Shown: piece by piece, positions 9,163 to 43,441 of the stretch
Layout of the letters: each line of letters opens with the position of its first letter
How positions within the stretch are numbered: the stretch's first letter is position 1
Assembly: GCA_902566515.1 (NCBI GenBank)
Contig: CACFIX010000002.1
Span: 19,566 to 83,565 of the forward strand
Origin: an uncultured Candidatus Actinomarina sp.
GTDB taxonomy: Bacteria > Actinomycetota > Acidimicrobiia > Actinomarinales > Actinomarinaceae
DNA: 64,000 nt
Reading direction: 5' to 3'
Notes under the pieces: model-generated
The model's input: the letters and a program-made list of their open reading frames with translations, nothing else
The model's database searches: none
What the model was told of the DNA's origin: nothing
Program-made: the position numbers and the translations under genes

Positions 9163-9168
9163 TCTTTT

Positions 9169-9486
9169 TTAGAGTAAGGGGTGAGACTTAAAAATCTTCA
9201 AAATTTCAGATGGTTTTAGGTTTGACGAATCTTTATTTCCAACAACTAAAATGTCCAGATTTTTATTGTCTGATAGGCTCCTTACTGCTTCCCTTGTCCT
9301 TCTTTTAAACTTATTTCTAATAACTGCATTTGCATGCTTGCTTGAAATACTTATTCCAAGTCTTGAAGAGGTTGTACCGTTTTCTCTAACAAAAACCTTT
9401 AGGCCATTTGAGGCTATACAAAATTCTTCTTTTTTTAGGCTATCAAAATGATTTTTTTTATTTAGCGAAGTAAACTTCACATTCAC
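9169..9486 (-). CDS. rnpA: ribonuclease P protein component
   Basis: 'RLGISISSKHANAVIRNKFKRRTREA' RnpA motif. Immediately downstream of rpmH. Confidence 0.8.
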   Translation of the reverse strand: MNVKFTSLNKKNHFDSLKKEEFCIASNGLKVFVRENGTTSSRLGISISSKHANAVIRNKFKRRTREAVRSLSDNKNLDILVVGNKDSSNLKPSEILKIFKSHPLL

Positions 9487-9489
9487 TAC

Positions 9490-9624
9490 CTAGGCAGACA
9501 AAATTTTACGACCCTTTTTTCTTCTTCTTTTAAGAATTTCGCGTCCTGCTCTTGTACGCATTCTTGATCTAAAACCGTGTTTTCTGCTTCTTTTTCTATT
9601 ACTAGGTTGATATGTTCTTTTCAT
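9490..9624 (-). CDS. rpmH: 50S ribosomal protein L34
   Basis: Hand translation of the minus strand gives [44 protein letters not shown] (44 aa). It is below the ORF-track length cut-off. Confidence 0.9.
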
Positions 9625-9900
9625 TTAATACCTGTTTGTAAGAATAAATGAAGAAATTAATTAAACAAAACAAAATAAATTTTATTTTTAATTAGTTCGC
9701 GAAAAGAATTTTTAGCTCGCGAAAAACAAATTAATTAGCTTTAACAAACAACTTTATTAAAAATTAATATGCATAACTTGTTTAGGGATTTACTCAATGT
9801 TTATTGAGGTTTTTCAAAGTTTTAAACACTTTGTGAAATTTTAATCTGTTTTTCACACTCTATGAAAATCTTGTTTTGGTAGTTAAGTTTATATCTGATT
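9625..9900. other. rpmH-dnaA intergenic region: candidate oriC / dnaA promoter segment
   Basis: 276 nt, extremely AT-rich. Gene orientation switches here. Contains inverted TGTGAAA / TTTCACA boxes (about 9832-9859), the 12-mer tttaaacacttt shared with the dnaA-dnaN spacer, and two TTAGYTCGCGAAAA repeats. Confidence 0.45.
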
Positions 9901-11241
9901 ATGGGGAGTAGGGGAAATACTGTAATGCTTGAAGAGTTTAAGGCTTTATTAGAAAAATCTTTAACCAACAAGACAGATAGATATTGGTTAGATCAGGTTG
10001 GCCTTGAAATAAATGATGAGAAAGATCTTTGTATTATTGTTTCATCTGATTTTATAAAATCCGCTATTGAAAAAAAGGTTTATTCAAAAATTAAGTCAGT
10101 ATATCAACTTAAATACAACAACAAGGCTGATTGTGTTTTTGTTGTTGATAAAAACTTTCAAAAAACAAGTGTAGATGAATGGTCAGGGGTTAAAACAATT
10201 GTAGTTGAGAAAAAACAAAACGATATTGTTGCTGAGACCCCTTATGATTTATCCTTTTTTGATGAGCTTTTTGTTGGTGGTTGTAATAATCTGGCAATAA
10301 CAGCAGCTAAAAACGTTGTTGTATCACCCGGTAAACGGTTTAATCCACTTTTTGTTTATGGTAAACCGGGTGTTGGAAAAACCCACCTTTTGAAAACTAT
10401 TGAGGCATCAAATAAGTCTTCTTTCTATATTGACTCGGAGTCTTTTCTTGAATCATATATTTCCGGTATAAAAAATAATGATATTAACAACTTTAAAAAG
10501 AGAATTAGATCTGTAGATATTTTATTAATAGACGATATTCAGTTTTTTGTAGGCAAAAAAGGTGTTTCTGAAGAGCTTTTTCATACAATTAACTATTTTT
10601 TAAACAATTCAAAGTCTGTGGTTTTAGCCTCCGACCAGAAACCCCAAGAACTTAGTGGTTTTCCGGATCGTTTGGTTTCTAGAATTTTAAACGGACTAGT
10701 AACAGATATAGAAAAACCTGGTAGGGAAATTTTTTCTGAGGTCTTAAAAAAGAACAATGTTGAGTTTGAAGGCTTGTTGTTTTCCAAAAATGATTTAGAA
10801 ACGTTACTTTCGTTGGACTTTCAAAGCTTTAGAGAAATAAATGGTGTTGTTAATAATCTAATTATTAACAAACAAACTGGTATAAGTAATAATAAATACA
10901 TATCTGAGCTCGTTTCAATGTATAGCAACAACAAGATAATGGAGTTGACTCCGGAGTTTATTCTAAAATACTGTTCGGAGGTTTACCAGGTTGACGAAAG
11001 GCTTGTTCTTTCAAAAAATAGAAGTGAGCTTGTAAGCAACGCTAGACATCTGTTTATTTACTTGATGAGGAAACATACTGAGTACTCCTTAAACCAAATT
11101 GGTTTATATGTGGGGAACAGATCTCACTCAACGGTTCTCTCTTCTATAAAGAAGGTCGAAGGCTCAAGTTTGTTTAAAAAAGAAGTCAACATTTTCAACA
11201 ATAAAATAGATAACAGCTCAAAGAAGTTTGTTGGTGTTTAG
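9901..11241 (+). CDS. dnaA: chromosomal replication initiator DnaA
   Basis: AAA+ 'GKPGVGKTHLL' and 'LLIDDIQF'. Domain IV 'ARHLFIYLMRKHTEYSLNQIGLYVGNRSHSTVLSSIKKVE'. The start could be ATG 9925. Confidence 0.95.
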   Translation: MGSRGNTVMLEEFKALLEKSLTNKTDRYWLDQVGLEINDEKDLCIIVSSDFIKSAIEKKVYSKIKSVYQLKYNNKADCVFVVDKNFQKTSVDEWSGVKTIVVEKKQNDIVAETPYDLSFFDELFVGGCNNLAITAAKNVVVSPGKRFNPLFVYGKPGVGKTHLLKTIEASNKSSFYIDSESFLESYISGIKNNDINNFKKRIRSVDILLIDDIQFFVGKKGVSEELFHTINYFLNNSKSVVLASDQKPQELSGFPDRLVSRILNGLVTDIEKPGREIFSEVLKKNNVEFEGLLFSKNDLETLLSLDFQSFREINGVVNNLIINKQTGISNNKYISELVSMYSNNKIMELTPEFILKYCSEVYQVDERLVLSKNRSELVSNARHLFIYLMRKHTEYSLNQIGLYVGNRSHSTVLSSIKKVEGSSLFKKEVNIFNNKIDNSSKKFVGV

Positions 11242-11351
11242 AATGTTGGAAACTACTAATGTGTTTTTAAAGTCTTTTAAGGTGTTTTCTGTTTTTTTAA
11301 ACACTTTAAACAGCTTTATTATTGTTATATACATAAAAGAATAAGAGGTAT
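11242..11351. other. dnaA-dnaN intergenic region: candidate oriC segment
   Basis: This is the usual oriC position in Actinobacteria. GTGTTT-type boxes occur at about 11262 and 11282 (+), with tttaaacacttt at 11296-11307. Confidence 0.4.
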
Positions 11352-12473
11352 TTGTTGAAATTTAAAACAACAACCAAGAGTATAAAAGAATATGTTTTGA
11401 CTGTGTCTAAAGCTGTTGATGTTAAACCTTCTACTCCAGCGCTCCAAGGTCTTTATATAAAAATTAAAGAAAACCGTTGTGAGTTAACGGGTTCCGATCT
11501 GGACCTAGTTATAAAAGCCAGTTTTGAAGTAGAGTCTATTGTCGACGGAGAATGTCTTGTTAATGCAAGAATTTTTTCAGAAGTGGTAAGGAAACTACCC
11601 TCAGGAGAAGTTGTCTTTTCAGACATAGGGAACGAGATCAAGGTAGAAACAAAAAAAACAGAATATAGGCTTAGAAAACTAGATCACTTAACCTATCCTA
11701 AAACACTATTAGAAGAACAACACAATACCTCTGAAAGCAAACAACTTAAAACAACAAACCTTTTTGATGCATTAAAAAAAGTAGGTGTAGCAGCCTCTCC
11801 AGAAGGAGGAAAACCAATACTCACAGGTGTCTTCTTTGATAACGAAAACAACGAAACAAACCTCGTTTCAACAGACAGTTACAGGCTCGCAACCAATACT
11901 GTTTTTGACCTCCCCATTTCCGATGCAGGAATTGTTTCATATAAGTCTTTAAGCGAAACGATAAAAATATTTGAAGACAGTGAAGATGAAATAAACATAA
12001 ACTCAACAGAAAGAGAGCTACATTTTTACAACAAAAGATACTACACATCAGTAAGAAAACTGGAAGGAACGTTTCCAGAGTATAAAATGTTGTTTCCTAA
12101 AGAAAATCTTTTTTCAATAGAAGTTGATAAAAAAGCTATATTGGAATCATTAGATCGATCAACTGTTGTTGCAGAGGGTTTTATACCCGTAACCCTTAAG
12201 GTGGTGGATGACACAACCCTAAACATCTCCTCTACTAATAAAGATATTGGTGGTGGCAACGAAGTGGTAGATGTAAAAATATTAGGACTTGAAGTAGGAG
12301 ACATCTCTGGTTTTGAAATATCGTTTAACCCAAACTATTTAATTCAAGGAATTGAAGTTTTGGAAGGAAACAAAGCTTATCTAAGGTTTTCTGGAAACGA
12401 TAAACCAGCTGTCATTCAAGGAGAAGAAGAACACTATAAGTATCTATTAATGCCTGTTAGGACGAACCAATAA
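11352..12473 (+). CDS. dnaN: DNA polymerase III beta sliding clamp
   Basis: Three-domain clamp-like sequence. TTG start preceded by AAGAGG (11343-11348). Position after dnaA. Confidence 0.9.
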   Translation: MLKFKTTTKSIKEYVLTVSKAVDVKPSTPALQGLYIKIKENRCELTGSDLDLVIKASFEVESIVDGECLVNARIFSEVVRKLPSGEVVFSDIGNEIKVETKKTEYRLRKLDHLTYPKTLLEEQHNTSESKQLKTTNLFDALKKVGVAASPEGGKPILTGVFFDNENNETNLVSTDSYRLATNTVFDLPISDAGIVSYKSLSETIKIFEDSEDEININSTERELHFYNKRYYTSVRKLEGTFPEYKMLFPKENLFSIEVDKKAILESLDRSTVVAEGFIPVTLKVVDDTTLNISSTNKDIGGGNEVVDVKILGLEVGDISGFEISFNPNYLIQGIEVLEGNKAYLRFSGNDKPAVIQGEEEHYKYLLMPVRTNQ

Positions 12474-12755
12474 ATGTTTAACAAAGAACCCCAAAAAATT
12501 AATTCAAACGATTCAGGTATTGACTTTTCAAAATTCGAAAAGATTAAAAAACACTTTAAAAACGAGAAAACTAACTTTTACAACGAAATAATACCAGGAC
12601 CAGTTATTGGGGATGAGTTAATCCTCTATGTTGACTCAAAAAGATTGAAAAACCTAATCGAACTTCAACAAGAAAAACTATTAATTGACATAGAAAAAAA
12701 CACAAAAATAAAGTTAAAAAAACTAAATATTCAAGTAGATAATAACCAGCAATAA
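12474..12755 (+). CDS. DUF721/DciA-like small protein
   Basis: 'VIGDELILYVDSKRLKNLIELQQEKLLIDIEK...IKLKKLNIQV' fits the DUF721 pattern (G-L-V-V-S..W...L). Sits immediately upstream of gyrB, as in other Actinobacteria. Confidence 0.5.
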   Translation: MFNKEPQKINSNDSGIDFSKFEKIKKHFKNEKTNFYNEIIPGPVIGDELILYVDSKRLKNLIELQQEKLLIDIEKNTKIKLKKLNIQVDNNQQ

Positions 12756-12831
12756 TCGGCAAATCTAGTAAAATAAGAGTTCAGCAAGGGGCTGTAATAT
12801 AAGCAAAAGAAGCGTATCTTGGAGATAGTTC

Positions 12832-14757
12832 GTGTCTAAAAAAGATTCAAATAATAGTTATGATTCAAAAGATATAAAAATTCTTGAGGGTCTAGAAGCA
12901 GTTAGAAAGCGCCCTGCAATGTATATTGGATCCACGGGTCCAAACGGCTTACACCACTTGATTTGGGAAGTTTTAGACAACTCTGTTGATGAAGCTATGG
13001 CTGGAAGATGTTCAAAGATAAAAGTTAGTCTAGAAAAAAATGGTTCAGTTACTGTTGAAGACGACGGAAGCGGAATACCAGTAAAACCGCACCCCAAAAC
13101 AAAAGTATCTGCACTCACAACAGTTTTAACAACGCTTCATGCTGGTGGAAAGTTTGAATCAGGAGCCTATACCGTTAGCGGTGGATTGCATGGAGTTGGA
13201 ATATCTGTTGTTAATGCTTTATCGACCTACGTTAAAGTGGAGGTTCAAAGAGACGGTCATTTTTGGAATCAAGACTTTGACTTGGGAAAACCAAAATCCA
13301 AAATCAAAAAAGGAAAAGTTTCAAAGAAAACAGGTACAAAAATTAACTTTCTAGCAGATCCAGAAATATTTGATGAGACCCAAACATATGATTACAACAT
13401 AGTTGATGAAAGACTTAGACAAACTGCTTTTCTTAACAAAGGTTTGAAAATAATACTTGTTGACAATAGAGTTAAGCCACCTACAAAAGAAGAGTATCAC
13501 TATAAAGGCGGTCTCACAGATTTTGTTGAATATTTAAATGACGGTTTTGATCCATTGCATCAAAAAATAATTTCTTTTTCAGACCAAACAAAAGATTCAG
13601 AAATTGAAGTTGCACTTCAATGGAAAAACGAAGACGACGTAACAATAAAAAGTTTTGCTAACAACATACACACCTTAGAGGGTGGTACTCATGAAGAAGG
13701 ACTAAGAACAGCTGTCACCAAAGCAATTAATGACTTTGCAAAAAAAAGAAATCTTCATTCAGATATATCTTTAACAGGAGATGACATAAGAGAAGGACTT
13801 ACAGGTGTGGTATCTGTAAGGGTAAAAGAACCTCAATTCGAAGGACAAACAAAAACAAAATTAGGAAATACCGAAATGAAATCAAGGGTTCAAGTCTTAA
13901 TTAATGAAGAATTTCCAAAATGGTTAACCAAAAATACCAAAGAAGGCAGAGCAATAGTAGAAAGATGCGCAGTTGCTGCAAAAGCAAGAATGAGTGCAAA
14001 AAAAGCTAGAGAGCTCACCAAGCGTAAAAGCATTTTAGAGACCTCAGGTCTTCCGGGAAAACTTGCAGACTGCTCTTCAACAGATCCAACAGAAAGTGAG
14101 TTATTCATTGTAGAAGGGGACTCAGCAGCTGGTCCTGCTAAACAAGCACGAGACTCAAGAGTACAAGCAATTTTGCCGATCAGGGGAAAGATTATAAATG
14201 TTCAAAAAGTTACAGAAAACAGAGCTCTTCAAAATGAAGAGATAAGCGCACTCATTAAGGCTATTGGTACTGGTATAAAGCTTCAGTTCAATGAAGAAGA
14301 GTCAAGATATGACAAAATAATTTTCTTAACAGATGCTGATGTTGACGGTGCGCATATTAGAACATTGCTTCTTACATTCTTTTTTAAATTTATGCCTGGT
14401 TTGATAACAAGTGGAAAAGTCTGGATATCAGAACCGCCGTTATATCGAGTAAAAGCATCATCAGGAATAACATACTTAAAAGACGATGAAGCACTAAATA
14501 AATTTAAAAAAGAAAACAAAAACAAAAAGTTTGATATAAGCAGATTCAAAGGGTTGGGAGAAATGAATGCTGGAGAGTTGTGGGACACCGCAATGAATCC
14601 TGAGACTAGAACCCTAATCAAAGTTACGCTTGCAGACGCTAAAGGTGCGATGGCAAAAGCTTCTGATATGTTTGAAATTTTAATGGGAAATGATGTTTCA
14701 AAAAGAAAACTGTTTATTGAAAAGAACGCTAAAGACGTGAGGTTTCTTGACGTATAA
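12832..14757 (+). CDS. gyrB: DNA gyrase subunit B
   Basis: GHKL ATPase 'GLHHLIWEVLDNSVDEA', Toprim 'ELFIVEGDSAAG', 'DADVDGAHI'. GTG start with GGAGA RBS. Confidence 0.95.
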   Translation: MSKKDSNNSYDSKDIKILEGLEAVRKRPAMYIGSTGPNGLHHLIWEVLDNSVDEAMAGRCSKIKVSLEKNGSVTVEDDGSGIPVKPHPKTKVSALTTVLTTLHAGGKFESGAYTVSGGLHGVGISVVNALSTYVKVEVQRDGHFWNQDFDLGKPKSKIKKGKVSKKTGTKINFLADPEIFDETQTYDYNIVDERLRQTAFLNKGLKIILVDNRVKPPTKEEYHYKGGLTDFVEYLNDGFDPLHQKIISFSDQTKDSEIEVALQWKNEDDVTIKSFANNIHTLEGGTHEEGLRTAVTKAINDFAKKRNLHSDISLTGDDIREGLTGVVSVRVKEPQFEGQTKTKLGNTEMKSRVQVLINEEFPKWLTKNTKEGRAIVERCAVAAKARMSAKKARELTKRKSILETSGLPGKLADCSSTDPTESELFIVEGDSAAGPAKQARDSRVQAILPIRGKIINVQKVTENRALQNEEISALIKAIGTGIKLQFNEEESRYDKIIFLTDADVDGAHIRTLLLTFFFKFMPGLITSGKVWISEPPLYRVKASSGITYLKDDEALNKFKKENKNKKFDISRFKGLGEMNAGELWDTAMNPETRTLIKVTLADAKGAMAKASDMFEILMGNDVSKRKLFIEKNAKDVRFLDV

Positions 14758-39872: not shown

Positions 39873-41117
39873 ATGAAAAAAGTTATAGTTGTTGGAGCAG
39901 GATTTGGTGGTTTAAATTTCATTAGAAATGCAAGTTCAAATAAAGAGATTGAATTTACTTTAATAGATAAGCAAAATCATCATCTATTTCAACCTCTCTT
40001 GTATCAAGTTGCAACAGCTGTTTTATCACCTGCAAATATTGCTTTTCCAATTAGAAGAATGTTTAAAAAATCCAAAAATGTAAAAGTAGTCTTAGGTGAG
40101 GTTACCTCTGTTGATAGGGATAAGAAGAATGTGGAATTAGATTCAGGTATTAATTTAAGTTATGATCAGTTGGTCATTGCAACTGGCTCACTTCATTCAT
40201 ACTTTGGGAATGATAGCTGGTCTAATTATTCTCAAGGGCTCAAAGGTATAAACGACGCTTTAGTAATTAGAGAAAATCTTTTAAAGGCTTTCGAAAAAGC
40301 TGAAAATGAATTAGATAATGAAATCAAACAAGAGTATTTAAATTTTGTTGTTATTGGAGGTGGTCCAACAGGAGTTGAGATGGCTGGGTCCATTGCTGAG
40401 ATAGCATATAAAAATTTAAATAAAGAATTCGAAAACTTTGACTCCGATGATCCTAATGTATATTTAATTGAAGCAAACAGTAAGTTACTTCCAATGTTCA
40501 GCAATAAATTATCAGAAAAAACAGAAAAATATTTATCCGACTTCGGTGTCCAAGTACTTAAAGACGAGAAAGTAGAAAATGTCAATAATCATATCGTTCA
40601 AACTAATAAACAAGTTATAAAATCTAGAAATATTATATGGGCTGCAGGAAATGAAGCCTCTCCATTGATTAGTAAGTTAAACACAATTACCGACGATTAT
40701 GGAAGAGCAATTGTTGATCCAGATTGTTCATTAAAAGAAGACCCTGATGTTTTTGTATTAGGTGATGCAGCAAATCATAAAGATTTAAAAAATAATTCTT
40801 TACCAGGCATTGCGCCCGTAGCTATTCAGCAGGGAAAGTATGTCGCTAAAATTGTAAAAAACAAAATTTTAAAAATTGATAGAAAGCCATTTAAATTCTC
40901 TGACAAAGGCATGATGGCAACTGTTGGCAAATATAAAGCTGTTGGAAAGATTGGAAACATTGAAGTATCAGGCTTTATAGCCTGGATTGTTTGGAGTGTA
41001 ATTCATATTGTCTATTTAATTGGTTATCGATCTAAATTGTTAGTAGTTATTGAATGGATATTTTCCTACTTGTTTAACAAAAAGGGAACAAGATTAATTT
41101 ACAGAGAAGAAGTGTGA
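39873..41117 (+). CDS. ndh: type II NADH dehydrogenase (NDH-2)
   Basis: 'VVVGAGFGGL', 'HHLFQPLLYQVAT', second Rossmann 'VVIGGGPTGVEMAG', 'VLGDAA'. Confidence 0.85.
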   Translation: MKKVIVVGAGFGGLNFIRNASSNKEIEFTLIDKQNHHLFQPLLYQVATAVLSPANIAFPIRRMFKKSKNVKVVLGEVTSVDRDKKNVELDSGINLSYDQLVIATGSLHSYFGNDSWSNYSQGLKGINDALVIRENLLKAFEKAENELDNEIKQEYLNFVVIGGGPTGVEMAGSIAEIAYKNLNKEFENFDSDDPNVYLIEANSKLLPMFSNKLSEKTEKYLSDFGVQVLKDEKVENVNNHIVQTNKQVIKSRNIIWAAGNEASPLISKLNTITDDYGRAIVDPDCSLKEDPDVFVLGDAANHKDLKNNSLPGIAPVAIQQGKYVAKIVKNKILKIDRKPFKFSDKGMMATVGKYKAVGKIGNIEVSGFIAWIVWSVIHIVYLIGYRSKLLVVIEWIFSYLFNKKGTRLIYREEV

Positions 41118-41135: not shown

Positions 41136-41178
41136 GTGGGCCTAGTTAGATTTGAACTAACGACCTCATCCTTATCAG
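41136..41178. repeat. 43-nt direct repeat: displaced copy of the 3' half of tRNA-Ile (att-like site)
   Basis: gtgggcctagttagatttgaactaacgacctcatccttatcag is identical to 42941-42983. Confidence 0.9.
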
Positions 41179-41393
41179 AGATTTAACATAGCATACGGAT
41201 ACCTATGAAGTCATATGGCTAATTTGGCTCCAATATTTTTAGGCTCTTATGAAAGCATCTCAAAACATATGGAGACATATGAACAAAACTTGATTCAAAA
41301 AGAGGGGGAAAAGAGGGGATATTATTCTGTCTTATGAAATTTTTAAAATGTATTAATGGGTTATTAAGGTAAAAATTACTTAAAATAGAAACA

Positions 41394-42227
41394 ATGTCAA
41401 AAGAAATAAAAATCGAAAAGCCAAGAGTATTTTTTAATTCTACTTCTCCAGTCAGTACACAAATTATTAAAGGGGACTGCTTCACGGCAATGGATAAAAT
41501 GATAAAGGAAGAGAAAAAATTCGATATGATTTTTGCTGACCCACCTTATTTCTTAAGTAATGGAGGAATCACTTGTCAATCGGGAAAGATGGTCAAGGTT
41601 GACAAAGGAGATTGGGATGCATCTCAAGGTCCTGAACTAAACCATGAATTTAATTCTGAGTGGCTTAGAAGGTGTCGAGATTTGCTAGCTGATCACGGTA
41701 CATTATGGGTAAGCGGAACAATGCATGTAATCTACAGTGTTGGTTTTGCAATGCAGCAATTAGAAATGAAGATTCTTAATAATGTAACCTGGCAAAAACC
41801 TAATCCACCCCCACATCTAGCAGGTAGATACTTTACTCATTCAACAGAGACTCTTTTGTGGGCTCGCAAGGACGAGAAAGCAAAACATAAATATAATTAT
41901 TCGCTTATGAAAGAGGAAAATGGCGGAAAACAGTTAAAGGATGTATGGACTTTTACAGCACCTAAAAAATCAGAAAAAACAGAGGGCAAACATCCAACCC
42001 AAAAACCACTAATTTTATTAGACCGAATTATTAGAGCATCAACTGATGAAGGATCAACAATACTTGATCCCTTTTTAGGCAGTGGAACAACATCTGTTGC
42101 AGCACTTCTTAACGGGAGAAATTCAGTTGGTATAGAACAAGATGAAGAATACTGTGAGTTGTCTAAAAAAAGAATTCAGTGGGCTAAAAAAGAATTAAAC
42201 AAACCAAAACAAGAAGGCCTATTCTAA
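41394..42227 (+). CDS. DNA N6-adenine methyltransferase, beta class, DpnA (M2.DpnII)-like
   Basis: Motif IV 'IFADPPYFLSNGGI' precedes motif I 'ILDPFLGSGTT'. 'DKGDWD', 'HEFN', 'KILNNVTWQKPNPPP', 'RYFTHSTETLLWARK' and 'GKHPTQKP' closely follow DpnA as I remember it. Confidence 0.9.
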   Translation: MSKEIKIEKPRVFFNSTSPVSTQIIKGDCFTAMDKMIKEEKKFDMIFADPPYFLSNGGITCQSGKMVKVDKGDWDASQGPELNHEFNSEWLRRCRDLLADHGTLWVSGTMHVIYSVGFAMQQLEMKILNNVTWQKPNPPPHLAGRYFTHSTETLLWARKDEKAKHKYNYSLMKEENGGKQLKDVWTFTAPKKSEKTEGKHPTQKPLILLDRIIRASTDEGSTILDPFLGSGTTSVAALLNGRNSVGIEQDEEYCELSKKRIQWAKKELNKPKQEGLF

Positions 42228-42845
42228 ATTTCCAAAAAGCACATAATTACTTGGGAAAAAGTTAAAATGTTTAATTTTATTGTTATCAAGATATTCCAAA
42301 GTATCTAAATAAACACTTTTATTTTTTCTATTGCCGGCTTTTTCACCTATCTCAGTGTCTTTATAGACTTTGTCAGTATAAAACCAGTCACTTAAAACAA
42401 ATAAATACTCGAATTCATAGTCATTAAGTGAATTACTTTTTGAAAGAATTTTTTTGTAATATTCTATTTTAAAATTAAAAGACTGAAGTTTTTCATCAAC
42501 AGAACCAGGTGTTTTTTGATTTTTCATCTCCACCACAAAACACTTTTTTAAATTAAAGTTTATTACAAATGTGTCTGGCTTCCACATTTTATAAAAGTAA
42601 TCTCCCCAAAAAACATTCTCTTTTGACAATAGGTCGTTATACATTTGTTTTTCGAAATACACTTCTGCAATTAATTTATCTTGACCAAGTATTTTAAAAG
42701 GTTTATTTTTAGCTTTACTATCCGTATCTATAAATTCGTAACTTAAATTTGGGTCTTGACTTACAATATTTAAAAATGAATTCTTATTCTCAAAATCAAT
42801 CCCACTTTTGGCAGCAACATCACCGCCCTTACCGCCTTCTTTCAT
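42219..42845 (-). CDS. putative Type II restriction endonuclease (PD-(D/E)XK)
   Basis: 'KPDTFVINFNLKKCFVVEMK' gives a P-D ... E-x-K arrangement. Convergent with, and overlapping, the methyltransferase gene. No similarity to R.DpnII that I can see. Confidence 0.55.
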   Translation of the reverse strand: MKEGGKGGDVAAKSGIDFENKNSFLNIVSQDPNLSYEFIDTDSKAKNKPFKILGQDKLIAEVYFEKQMYNDLLSKENVFWGDYFYKMWKPDTFVINFNLKKCFVVEMKNQKTPGSVDEKLQSFNFKIEYYKKILSKSNSLNDYEFEYLFVLSDWFYTDKVYKDTEIGEKAGNRKNKSVYLDTLEYLDNNKIKHFNFFPSNYVLFGNLE

Positions 42846-42940
42846 AATTTTATTTTATTAAGAAAGAGGGGAAAGAGAGGGGGAATTGAACTTTTCTTGC
42901 ATTGTGCAAATGTGATTTCTGAAAAACCCTTATGACAATT

Positions 42941-42983
42941 GTGGGCCTAGTTAGATTTGAACTAACGACCTCATCCTTATCAG
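42941..42983. repeat. 43-nt direct repeat (within tRNA-Ile), partner of 41136-41178
   Basis: Identical 43-mer. Similarity continues as cag-N-gat and then breaks. Confidence 0.9.
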
Positions 42984-43016
42984 GGATGCGCTCTAACCAG
43001 GCTGAGCTATAGGCCC
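42942..43016 (-). tRNA. tRNA-Ile (anticodon GAU)
   Basis: Minus strand is GGGCCTATAGCTCAGCCTGGTTAGAGCGCATCCCTGATAAGGATGAGGTCGTTAGTTCAAATCTAACTAGGCCCA. It folds as a cloverleaf with loop CU-GAU-AA. No encoded CCA. Confidence 0.9.
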
Positions 43017-43428: not shown

Positions 43429-43441
43429 TAATTCTTAACGA

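Follow-up and report, generated by a model that had tools for sequence, protein, structure and literature searches.

The DNA analyzed here is a 64-kb window of a Candidatus Actinomarina contig, and all coordinates are window positions. Between the gene for an NDH-2 type NADH dehydrogenase (ndh) and a tRNA-Ile gene, it contains a two-gene islet (41136-42983) that most likely arose by site-specific insertion into the tRNA gene. We regard it as reasonably probable that this islet is a non-autonomous integrative cassette, in which a restriction-modification (R-M) pair lies between two attP arms and which is probably mobilized in trans. Its attP belongs to a family of 6-7.7-kb tyrosine-integrase/RepAM elements of Ca. 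Actinomarina, some of which were recovered in circular form. The window was assigned to Ca. Actinomarina (OCS155) because its ndh is 99% identical in several single-cell genomes of this group. The tRNA-Ile gene is reported to be single-copy in Actinomarinales (PMC7771536).

The islet is delimited by two exact copies of the 43-mer GTGGGCCTAGTTAGATTTGAACTAACGACCTCATCCTTATCAG (41136-41178 and 42941-42983), the only ones in the window; a third copy with ≤3 mismatches was not detected in the 64 kb, and 0 are expected from shuffled sequences. With one mismatch, the identity of the two copies extends to 47 nt. The right copy, the attR core, lies within an intact tRNA-Ile(GAT) gene (anticodon GAU) on the minus strand, the attB target gene, and forms its functional 3' part; ARAGORN and Rfam agree on this gene (42941-43016, with the start called at 42941 or 42942; 72.9 bits). 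Read on the tRNA strand, the repeat opens with the first base of the anticodon loop and closes with the 3' end of the molecule. The attL core, on the left, is the displaced 3' part; as a tRNA it fails (Rfam 20 bits, below threshold), and it is joined to native tRNA-downstream sequence. It begins 18 nt past the stop codon of ndh (39873-41117, plus strand; Pfam Pyr_redox_2, 3.5e-47, and NDH2_C), which represents the conserved left chromosomal flank and is located outside the element. The 1,762 bp between the copies hold only two substantial ORFs, which are convergent with a 9-nt overlap. An earlier note on this DNA, made from the sequence alone, had recorded the perfect repeats, the orphan left copy and the two overlapping genes; the exact coordinates, ARAGORN, Rfam, ORF and Pfam calls agree with it on each of these points. 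It had also described the islet as integrase-less. In agreement, tblastn searches with two tyrosine integrases (from the contigs L019 and L110, see below) gave no match in the islet or in the rest of the 64-kb window, the two islet ORFs encode a methyltransferase and a nuclease, and no fragment of an integrase or of RepAM was found in the islet.

Precise empty sites were identified in the single-cell genomes L014 (AG-349-A01) and L015 (AG-426-D23), in which ndh is directly followed by tRNA-Ile. Compared with these, the window carries a clean 1,805-bp insertion with a duplicated core in flanks that are 95-96% identical. The attL flank, TTAAAAAAGTA followed by GTGGGCC, matches the tRNA 3' end at the empty site of L014; the orphan left copy has thus kept the native downstream sequence, as expected from the integration of a circle with its own tRNA segment. 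The direct repeat corresponds to the 3' part of the tRNA, and the intact tRNA-Ile is found at the right copy, as expected if the insertion regenerated the tRNA. The reading of the repeats as attL and attR is therefore borne out, and the refuting case named in the earlier note, in which all relatives share the same arrangement, is contradicted by L014 and L015. As the cassette is absent from sister cells with such similar flanks, the insertion is recent.

The tRNA-Ile site is an insertion hot spot, and the variants with other cargo or with an integrase that the earlier note had proposed to look for were indeed found. L016 and L017 hold other content at the site, and in L018 (AG-447-P23), two cores enclose an islet of 1,137 bp whose single, unrelated gene encodes a 284-residue protein; a faint Replitron_HUH match of this protein (E 0.006, below cutoff) was disregarded. 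In L019 (AG-349-E07), an island of approximately 5 kb (9166-14204) between two complete tRNA-Ile genes contains genes for a GDSL lipase, a VWA protein, a tyrosine integrase with only 28.5% identity to that of the L110 type, a tRNA-Leu(TAA), an N4/N6 methyltransferase and an MvaI/BcnI-family endonuclease. A second, unrelated R-M system (MvaI/BcnI) was thus delivered to the same tRNA-Ile. The L019 island was rejected as parent of the window islet, since its ends differ and the AGGGG motif described below is absent. An integrase-bearing element also occupies the site in L110.

The islets of the window and L018 share approximately 150 nt after the left core and approximately 95 nt before the right core, with unrelated cargo in between. 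These shared ends represent attP-type arms, with a length of approximately 145 nt on the left (41179-41322, plus strand; beginning with AGATTTAA) and approximately 75 nt on the right (42860-42940, plus strand; terminating in ...TTTCTGAAAAACCCTTATGACAATT). Each contains the tandem G-rich motif AGGGG-N6-AGGGG with an 11-bp period, a putative arm-type protein-binding site (GAGGGGGAAAAGAGGGG, 41302-41318, plus strand, on the left; GAGGGGAAAGAGAGGGGG, 42866-42883, plus strand, on the right, with the same orientation and class). In the 64 kb, AGGGG-N6-AGGGG occurs at two sites, 41303 and 42867, which are the two islet ends, at an expectation of 0.02; in L018 it is likewise confined to the two ends of the islet. 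The left motif is located 167 nt from the core start in the window and 168 nt from it in the circular elements L173-L177 described below, and the right motif lies 74 nt ahead of the core in both. Compared with arms around unrelated cargo, the left arm of the window shows 87-90% identity over 145 nt, and the right arm up to 92.5% over 80 nt (L145, different cargo). The arms are absent from the empty sites of L014 and L015, which contradicts their being conserved host sequence. Rfam revealed no known RNA in the arms. The left arm also carries about five ATAYGR-like words (41190-41300; ATACGG, ATATGG, TTATGA, ATATGG and ATATGA). They are conserved from cassette to cassette, and an accessory protein, for example an excisionase, may act on them.

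The islet is a member of a large cassette family with conserved arms, which was invisible to the earlier note. One metagenome scan with the attL junction (CTCATCCTTATCAGAGATTTAA) as query yielded 61 contigs from Tara, Global Ocean Sampling and Joint Genome Institute marine samples. Their common layout comprises the core, a left arm opening with AGATTTAA, a motif approximately 167 nt from the core start, the cargo, and a motif 74 nt before the next core. Complete arm-bearing core-to-core units numbered 23, and all of them except a 7.7-kb integrase element measure 0.7-2.6 kb and hold 1-3 ORFs. When four other core-to-core segments are included, the encoded proteins fall into 46 unrelated clusters; among them are Ser/Thr-rich lipoproteins, small membrane proteins and a T5orf172/MUG113 protein. 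Many cores lie between a right arm and a left arm, which indicates tandem arrays; L142 has three such junctions.

The motifs of these cassettes fall into two classes, GTAGGGG-N4-GTAGGGG and AGAGGGG-N4-AGAGGGG, the latter being that of the window. Left and right motifs match in class in all 19 scorable cassettes (10 of one class and 9 of the other, 0 mixed; Fisher p=1e-5), even where neighbors in an array are of different class. Thus, the core-to-core unit is a discrete entity whose arms belong together. Such pairing is expected if the two arms form one attP in a circular intermediate.

Further observations were made on these contigs. The cargo ORFs of L094-L154 favor the strand of the tRNA-Ile (27 versus 12) and often end just after the left-arm motif, which hints at transcription entering the cassettes from the right arm or the tRNA side. 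Segments of L114 (23-5220) and L100 (37-2359) start with a complete tRNA-Ile and finish with a right end of variant sequence (CTGAAAAATRCA). They may belong to a second arm family, with an attP that takes in the whole tRNA. One of these segments contains McrBC-type genes for two McrB-like AAA proteins and McrC. The 2,775-bp contig L153, with the same 23 nt of the core at both ends, was considered as a mini-circle but not counted as one, since an assembly break at the repeat would leave the same ends. An origin from a phage or satellite is unsupported: neither the attL nor the attR junction was found in IMG/VR viral contigs, in which the integrase has distant relatives only (25-27% identity).

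An integrase backbone was found between or beside the same arms in three of the 61 contigs (L110, L132 and L102). It encodes a 370-residue tyrosine integrase (PF00589, 8e-18), proteins of 306, 94 and 87 residues, a 387-residue DUF3631 protein (4.5e-22) and a 190-residue helix-turn-helix protein. DUF3631 corresponds to RepAM, which initiates the replication of pMEA300, an integrative element of actinomycetes (PMC3218068). L110 holds an integrated 7.7-kb element within an array, and L132 an integrated copy of the same element. In L102 (6,013 bp), the order is integrase, right arm, exact core and left arm, with an 18-nt terminal repeat and a gene order circularly permuted relative to L110, which fits an attP-bearing circle or a tandem copy. 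The same attP arrangement with an exact core was found in L179 from another sample. A virtual attP of the window, composed of the right end, the core and the left end of the islet, is colinear with the attP of L179 and L102; the overall identity is 66%, with an identical core, near-identical core-proximal arms and both motifs in register. Both ends of the islet are homologous to the arms of an autonomous integrase element.

Homologs of the integrase formed 23 clusters (E≤1e-20), the longest contigs of which had 1-8 kb, with none >8.3 kb. Several have terminal repeats, namely L168 and L169 (6,369 bp with 127 nt) and L174-L177 (7,365 bp with 141 nt, 7,352 bp with 128 nt, and 7,347 bp with 123 nt). 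The different samples, constant length, permuted starts and terminal repeats of k-mer length indicate circular molecules. In the circles of approximately 7.2 kb (L173-L177), the exact 43-mer is accompanied by GTGGGGG tandems at -74 and +168. In the 6.2-kb circles (L168/L169, 4815-5075), the tandem G-rich motifs have the same spacing of 242 nt, but around the 3' half of tRNA-Val(TAC), so the element family targets more than one tRNA. Considering the tRNA-Ile circles, the tRNA-Val circles and the L110 type, three integrase lineages go with three motif variants.

From these data, the following mechanism is proposed. A circle composed of the right arm, the 43-nt core, the left arm and the cargo would recombine with the identical segment of the chromosomal tRNA-Ile(GAU) gene, which would restore an intact tRNA from the copy of the element and push the old 3' part beside ndh. 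The recombinase would be provided in trans by an autonomous relative instead of being encoded by the cassette, and the tandem AGGGG repeats of the two arms, with their 11-bp phase, would be bound by the integrase or an accessory protein of this relative. Because both arms are intact, excision and reinsertion by an integrase acting in trans are probable. In the cell, the methyltransferase would shield host sites, most likely GATC, as N6-methyladenine (m6A), and the PD-(D/E)XK nuclease would cleave unmodified incoming DNA; the pair may stabilize the cassette by post-segregational killing. Three results weigh against mobilization of the islet in trans. No integrase was found in the 64-kb window, the part of the genome that was searched; the integrase-bearing relatives found carry only motifs of the GTAGGGG, GTGGGGG or GGGGGG class, with no integrase partner of the AGAGGGG class of the window among them; and the assembled contigs included no excised circle of an integrase-less cassette.

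The earlier note had placed two origins of the islet side by side, a decayed integrative element and a cassette mobilized in trans. The evidence favors the latter, in that the attP arms are intact and class-matched and no integrase remnant is left; the movement in trans itself we infer. We consider it rather unlikely that the islet is a dead remnant, i.e. an autonomous element that lost its integrase and replication genes and became immobile, whereas its R-M genes survived by addiction. Genes of this kind are known to persist through R-M addiction, the lack of an integrase in islet and window fits a remnant, and an internal deletion could yield the unit from autonomous relatives, which carry arm-adjacent cargo (the lipoprotein genes in L110). 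However, many clean, independent deletions would be needed to generate at least 20 different cassettes with intact arms that match in class in 19 of 19 cases, and deletions of this kind would have had to remove every fragment of integrase and RepAM. The core copies are still identical at 43 of 43 positions, sister cells with 95-96% identical flanks lack the cassette, and the side-by-side cassettes of different class in L142 resemble serial insertions. The exchange of cassettes by homologous recombination after DNA uptake, via the arms and the tRNA core, would leave the L014-type empty site with only the 43-47-nt core for the first insertion, and both the exact duplication of the tRNA segment and the pairing of arm classes are products to be expected from site-specific recombination of circles. 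For replacing one cassette by another, the arms (75-145 nt, 87-92% identity) and the conserved chromosomal flanks could suffice, and the replacement of flexible islands by recombination was discussed by Lopez-Perez et al. (PMC7771536); overall, we regard this route as improbable. The possibility that the repeat is an assembly or chimera artefact, which the earlier note had raised, is practically negligible: although 43-nt repeats can misjoin short-read assemblies, the same architecture recurs in dozens of independent assemblies, the nuclease is present on approximately 45 other contigs, and occupied and empty sites differ by a clean insertion. Integration of the islet as a cassette with an attP of its own and mobilization in trans thus remains the favored explanation.

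The first islet gene (41394-42227, plus strand) encodes a beta-class N6-adenine DNA methyltransferase of 277 amino acids (PF01555, 3e-58; PADLOC MTase_II, 2e-93). Its motifs have the beta-class order, with motif IV (DPPY, within FADPPY at residues 47-52) before motif I (FLGSGTT, at residues ~227-233 by reading the sequence), and the protein contains both the catalytic DPPY and the S-adenosylmethionine-binding motif required of a Type II R-M methyltransferase. The closest solved relative is CcrM (9e-53), followed by a 'DpnA' entry from H. pylori (5e-29). The designation as DpnA-like in the earlier note is supported by the gene context but not by this ranking.

The second gene (42219-42845, minus strand) encodes a PD-(D/E)XK nuclease of 208 amino acids, a putative Type II restriction endonuclease of the PDDEXK_11 family. 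PF20472 (PDDEXK_11) was the sole match in Pfam and NCBIfam, with 23.0 bits versus a cutoff of 23.7 (E 7e-5). In 52 homologs, P90-D91, E106-x-K108 and the sequence GSVDEKL are invariant, and the family is compact (175-216 amino acids). The AlphaFold 2 model (predicted local distance difference test score of 83) had BsoBI and MunI as top Foldseek matches, both of them weak. No match to the DpnII family was obtained in Pfam or NCBIfam; a search of PDB sequences with a profile of the nuclease family gave nothing, and the single-sequence search only noise. These results are in line with the earlier description of the protein as carrying a P-D...E-x-K motif and not resembling R.DpnII. The phage collection contained no homolog of the nuclease.

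The two genes very probably form a Type II R-M system, as the nuclease has the catalytic motif and is linked to methyltransferases in five unrelated contexts. A DNA methyltransferase is adjacent in every context of a nuclease homolog that was examined, and the two genes are often translationally coupled. In L161, the methyltransferase beside the nuclease homolog is 60% identical to that of the window. L162 contains a trio of nuclease, Dam-class methyltransferase and N6_N4 methyltransferase, the last being 47% identical to the window enzyme, and in L163 the nuclease is followed by an N6_N4 methyltransferase, with a Dam-class methyltransferase located upstream beyond a GmrSD gene. On Lactiplantibacillus plasmids, a 'DNA adenine methylase' lies beside the nuclease homolog. 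At the leuS/drg locus of N. gonorrhoeae (L181, 2803-3956), a frameshifted methyltransferase gene (62% identity over 113 amino acids) downstream of drg is overlapped by a truncated gene for a 151-residue nuclease homolog (32% identity). This is the gonococcal NgoAXI locus, which was described to comprise a Dam (GATC) or a GmeATC-specific Drg and then a truncated methyltransferase (PMC6789123), the latter being referred to as DpnIIB-like (PMC4269198). It looks like a decayed DpnII-like GATC system with a PDDEXK_11 nuclease. In the table of the plasmid collection, which leaves out pseudogenes, no feature is listed under the gonococcal nuclease homolog.

The marine island or phage-like contigs L001-L013 carry the nuclease beside an N6_N4 methyltransferase of another subfamily. 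The low-GC cluster around it comprises SbcC/SbcD-like, RNase J-like, ParB_N, VWA, DarT/Macro (DarTG) and NUDIX/NrtR genes and is a defense island or a phage-like element; VWA and GDSL genes are also present in the L019 island.

Methyltransferases that are 83-86% identical to the window enzyme lie beside Dam-class methyltransferases in L155 and L156. In L157-L160, an 86% identical methyltransferase is accompanied by a convergent, overlapping and unrelated ORF of 202 codons with a faint MutH match (E 0.003), which is a replacement of the nuclease beside a conserved methyltransferase. Because of the Dam-class partner methyltransferases and the gonococcal NgoAXI/GATC locus, GATC is the likeliest recognition site of the window pair; the weakly MutH-like alternative partner also speaks for it. 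The GATC specificity that the earlier note had considered plausible is thus supported by gene context and not by the nearest structure. Three observations are neutral or point away from this assignment or from the pairing itself. CcrM, the nearest solved relative of the methyltransferase, is a GANTC enzyme; in the window, GATC is just slightly depleted (observed/expected 0.89) and GANTC is not (1.09), so that word counts do not discriminate between the two; and the closest relatives of the nuclease (57-63% identity) adjoin the other methyltransferase subfamily (29% identity).

The two genes might also not be an R-M pair at all, the methyltransferase being an orphan with a regulatory or anti-restriction role and the nuclease acting in repair or another kind of defense. 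For this view speak the far larger number of similar methyltransferases with other partners (299 members in the cluster at 80-92% identity, versus 13 for the nuclease), the lack of a match of the nuclease to a curated restriction-enzyme family and the weak Foldseek matches. Type II systems, however, commonly combine one methyltransferase family with non-homologous nucleases. Moreover, the nuclease adjoins methyltransferases, often with translational coupling, in unrelated bacteria and on plasmids, and the same methyltransferase subfamily recurs with it at 60%, 47% and 62% identity. We therefore attach only a low probability to two unconnected functions and retain the interpretation as a Type II system.

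Promoter and terminator scans were at chance level. Between the motif of the left arm and the methyltransferase start codon, a 21-nt inverted repeat (41325-41390; 81% complementary, 24-nt spacer) was noted, which could be an operator or a terminator. Outside of the islet, at window positions 43436-43441 and 0.4 kb from the tRNA pair, L015 and L016 hold approximately 1.45 kb of extra sequence that is absent from the window and L014; it encodes a 484-residue FAD-dependent oxidoreductase, GlpD-like by eye.

SAR11, Prochlorococcus and Actinomarina have large flexible gene pools and few recognizable mobile elements. For Actinomarinales, direct repeats of partial tRNAs were reported to mark recent cassette insertions, and tRNA-Ile and tRNA-Glu were listed as additional hot spots (Lopez-Perez et al. 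2020, PMC7771536); identifiable mobile elements were reported to be absent in that work, and integrases were not mentioned. The integration mechanism at the tRNA-bounded hypervariable regions of 84 complete Actinomarina genomes was described as still to be identified in a 2026 preprint (bioRxiv 10.64898/2026.04.03.716425). The locus studied here offers a concrete, testable mechanism, consisting of an attP architecture, candidate integrases on small circular replicons and many integrase-less cassettes. In addition, it brings to light an uncharacterized family of small restriction enzymes of the PD-(D/E)XK type with probable GATC specificity, to which an unannotated pseudogene of the well-studied gonococcal dam/drg locus belongs. 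In a wider and more tentative view, which we consider possible though somewhat less than evenly supported, Actinomarina would have an integron-like cassette economy that is based on a lambda-type attP with a tRNA-Ile core and not on attC. Hundreds of different units with 1-3 genes, each with a complete two-armed attP, would be taken up, accumulate and be set free again at the one essential tRNA-Ile gene. The integrases would reside on separate circular Int/RepAM episomes of 6-7 kb, and the tandem AGGGG motifs would be arm sites specific to a lineage, through which each cassette is paired with its recombinase. If true, flexible genes would turn over mainly by this route in a bacterium that is among the smallest and most abundant of the free-living ones.

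The islet is of the same locus type and from the same group of organisms as the 'tRNA-direct repeat genomic islands' of Actinomarinales (PMC7771536). The tRNA-Ile repeat locus has thus been known since 2020; beyond that work go the arms with their tandem motif and the pairing of arm classes, the cassette family, the R-M cargo and the circular integrase/RepAM elements as integrase partners. The tycheposons of Prochlorococcus (Hackl et al., bioRxiv 10.1101/2020.12.28.424599) resemble the islet family in their streamlined marine host, insertion into tRNA genes, tyrosine recombinase, partial-tRNA repeats, tandem pile-up, cargo and defense genes, and degenerate remnants. However, they carry their own integrase and hallmark genes, whereas the dominant form found here is an integrase-less unit of 1-3 genes with matched, complete arms, in an actinobacterial host and with RepAM as replication gene. 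The only likeness is one of lifestyle.

The autonomous relatives of the islet are similar to the actinomycete integrative and conjugative elements (AICEs) pMEA300 and pSAM2 (Ghinet et al. 2011, PMC3218068) in having a tyrosine integrase that targets tRNA 3' ends, RepAM and circular forms; L110 and L168-L177 encode both integrase and RepAM. They differ by their size of 6-7.7 kb and by the FtsK/SpoIIIE-type Tra domain, which was detected neither in the seven backbone ORFs of L110 nor among the precomputed Pfam matches of L168-L177. A survey of AICEs listed none in Acidimicrobidae, the group that includes Actinomarina (PMC3218068).

DpnII-type GATC systems share with the window cassette a beta-class m6A methyltransferase of the DpnA/HinfI/CcrM group, relatives of which occur in DpnII-like trios. 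Unlike these systems, the cassette has no Dam-class methyltransferase, and its nuclease is of the PDDEXK_11 family and not R.DpnII-like. With integron cassettes, the islet family has in common units of 1-3 genes with their own recombination site, arrays at one locus and a recombinase encoded elsewhere. An attC hairpin and an IntI platform are absent, and the site is a duplex attP as used by a lambda-like tyrosine integrase. It has a segment of the tRNA as core and direct, asymmetric arms with tandem direct motifs, and no integrase was found next to the array.

Cis-mobilizable elements (CIMEs), as in the streptococcal ICESt1/ICESt3 family, are bounded by the att sites of an autonomous integrative element, lack recombination genes and can occur in tandem with that element. 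Like the islet, they probably depend on its integrase. They are few and larger decay products of conjugative elements, whereas many tiny cassettes with diverse cargo were found here. In summary, the islet falls outside the definitions of an integron cassette and of an autonomous element, and it has those features of a cis-mobilizable derivative that could be tested.

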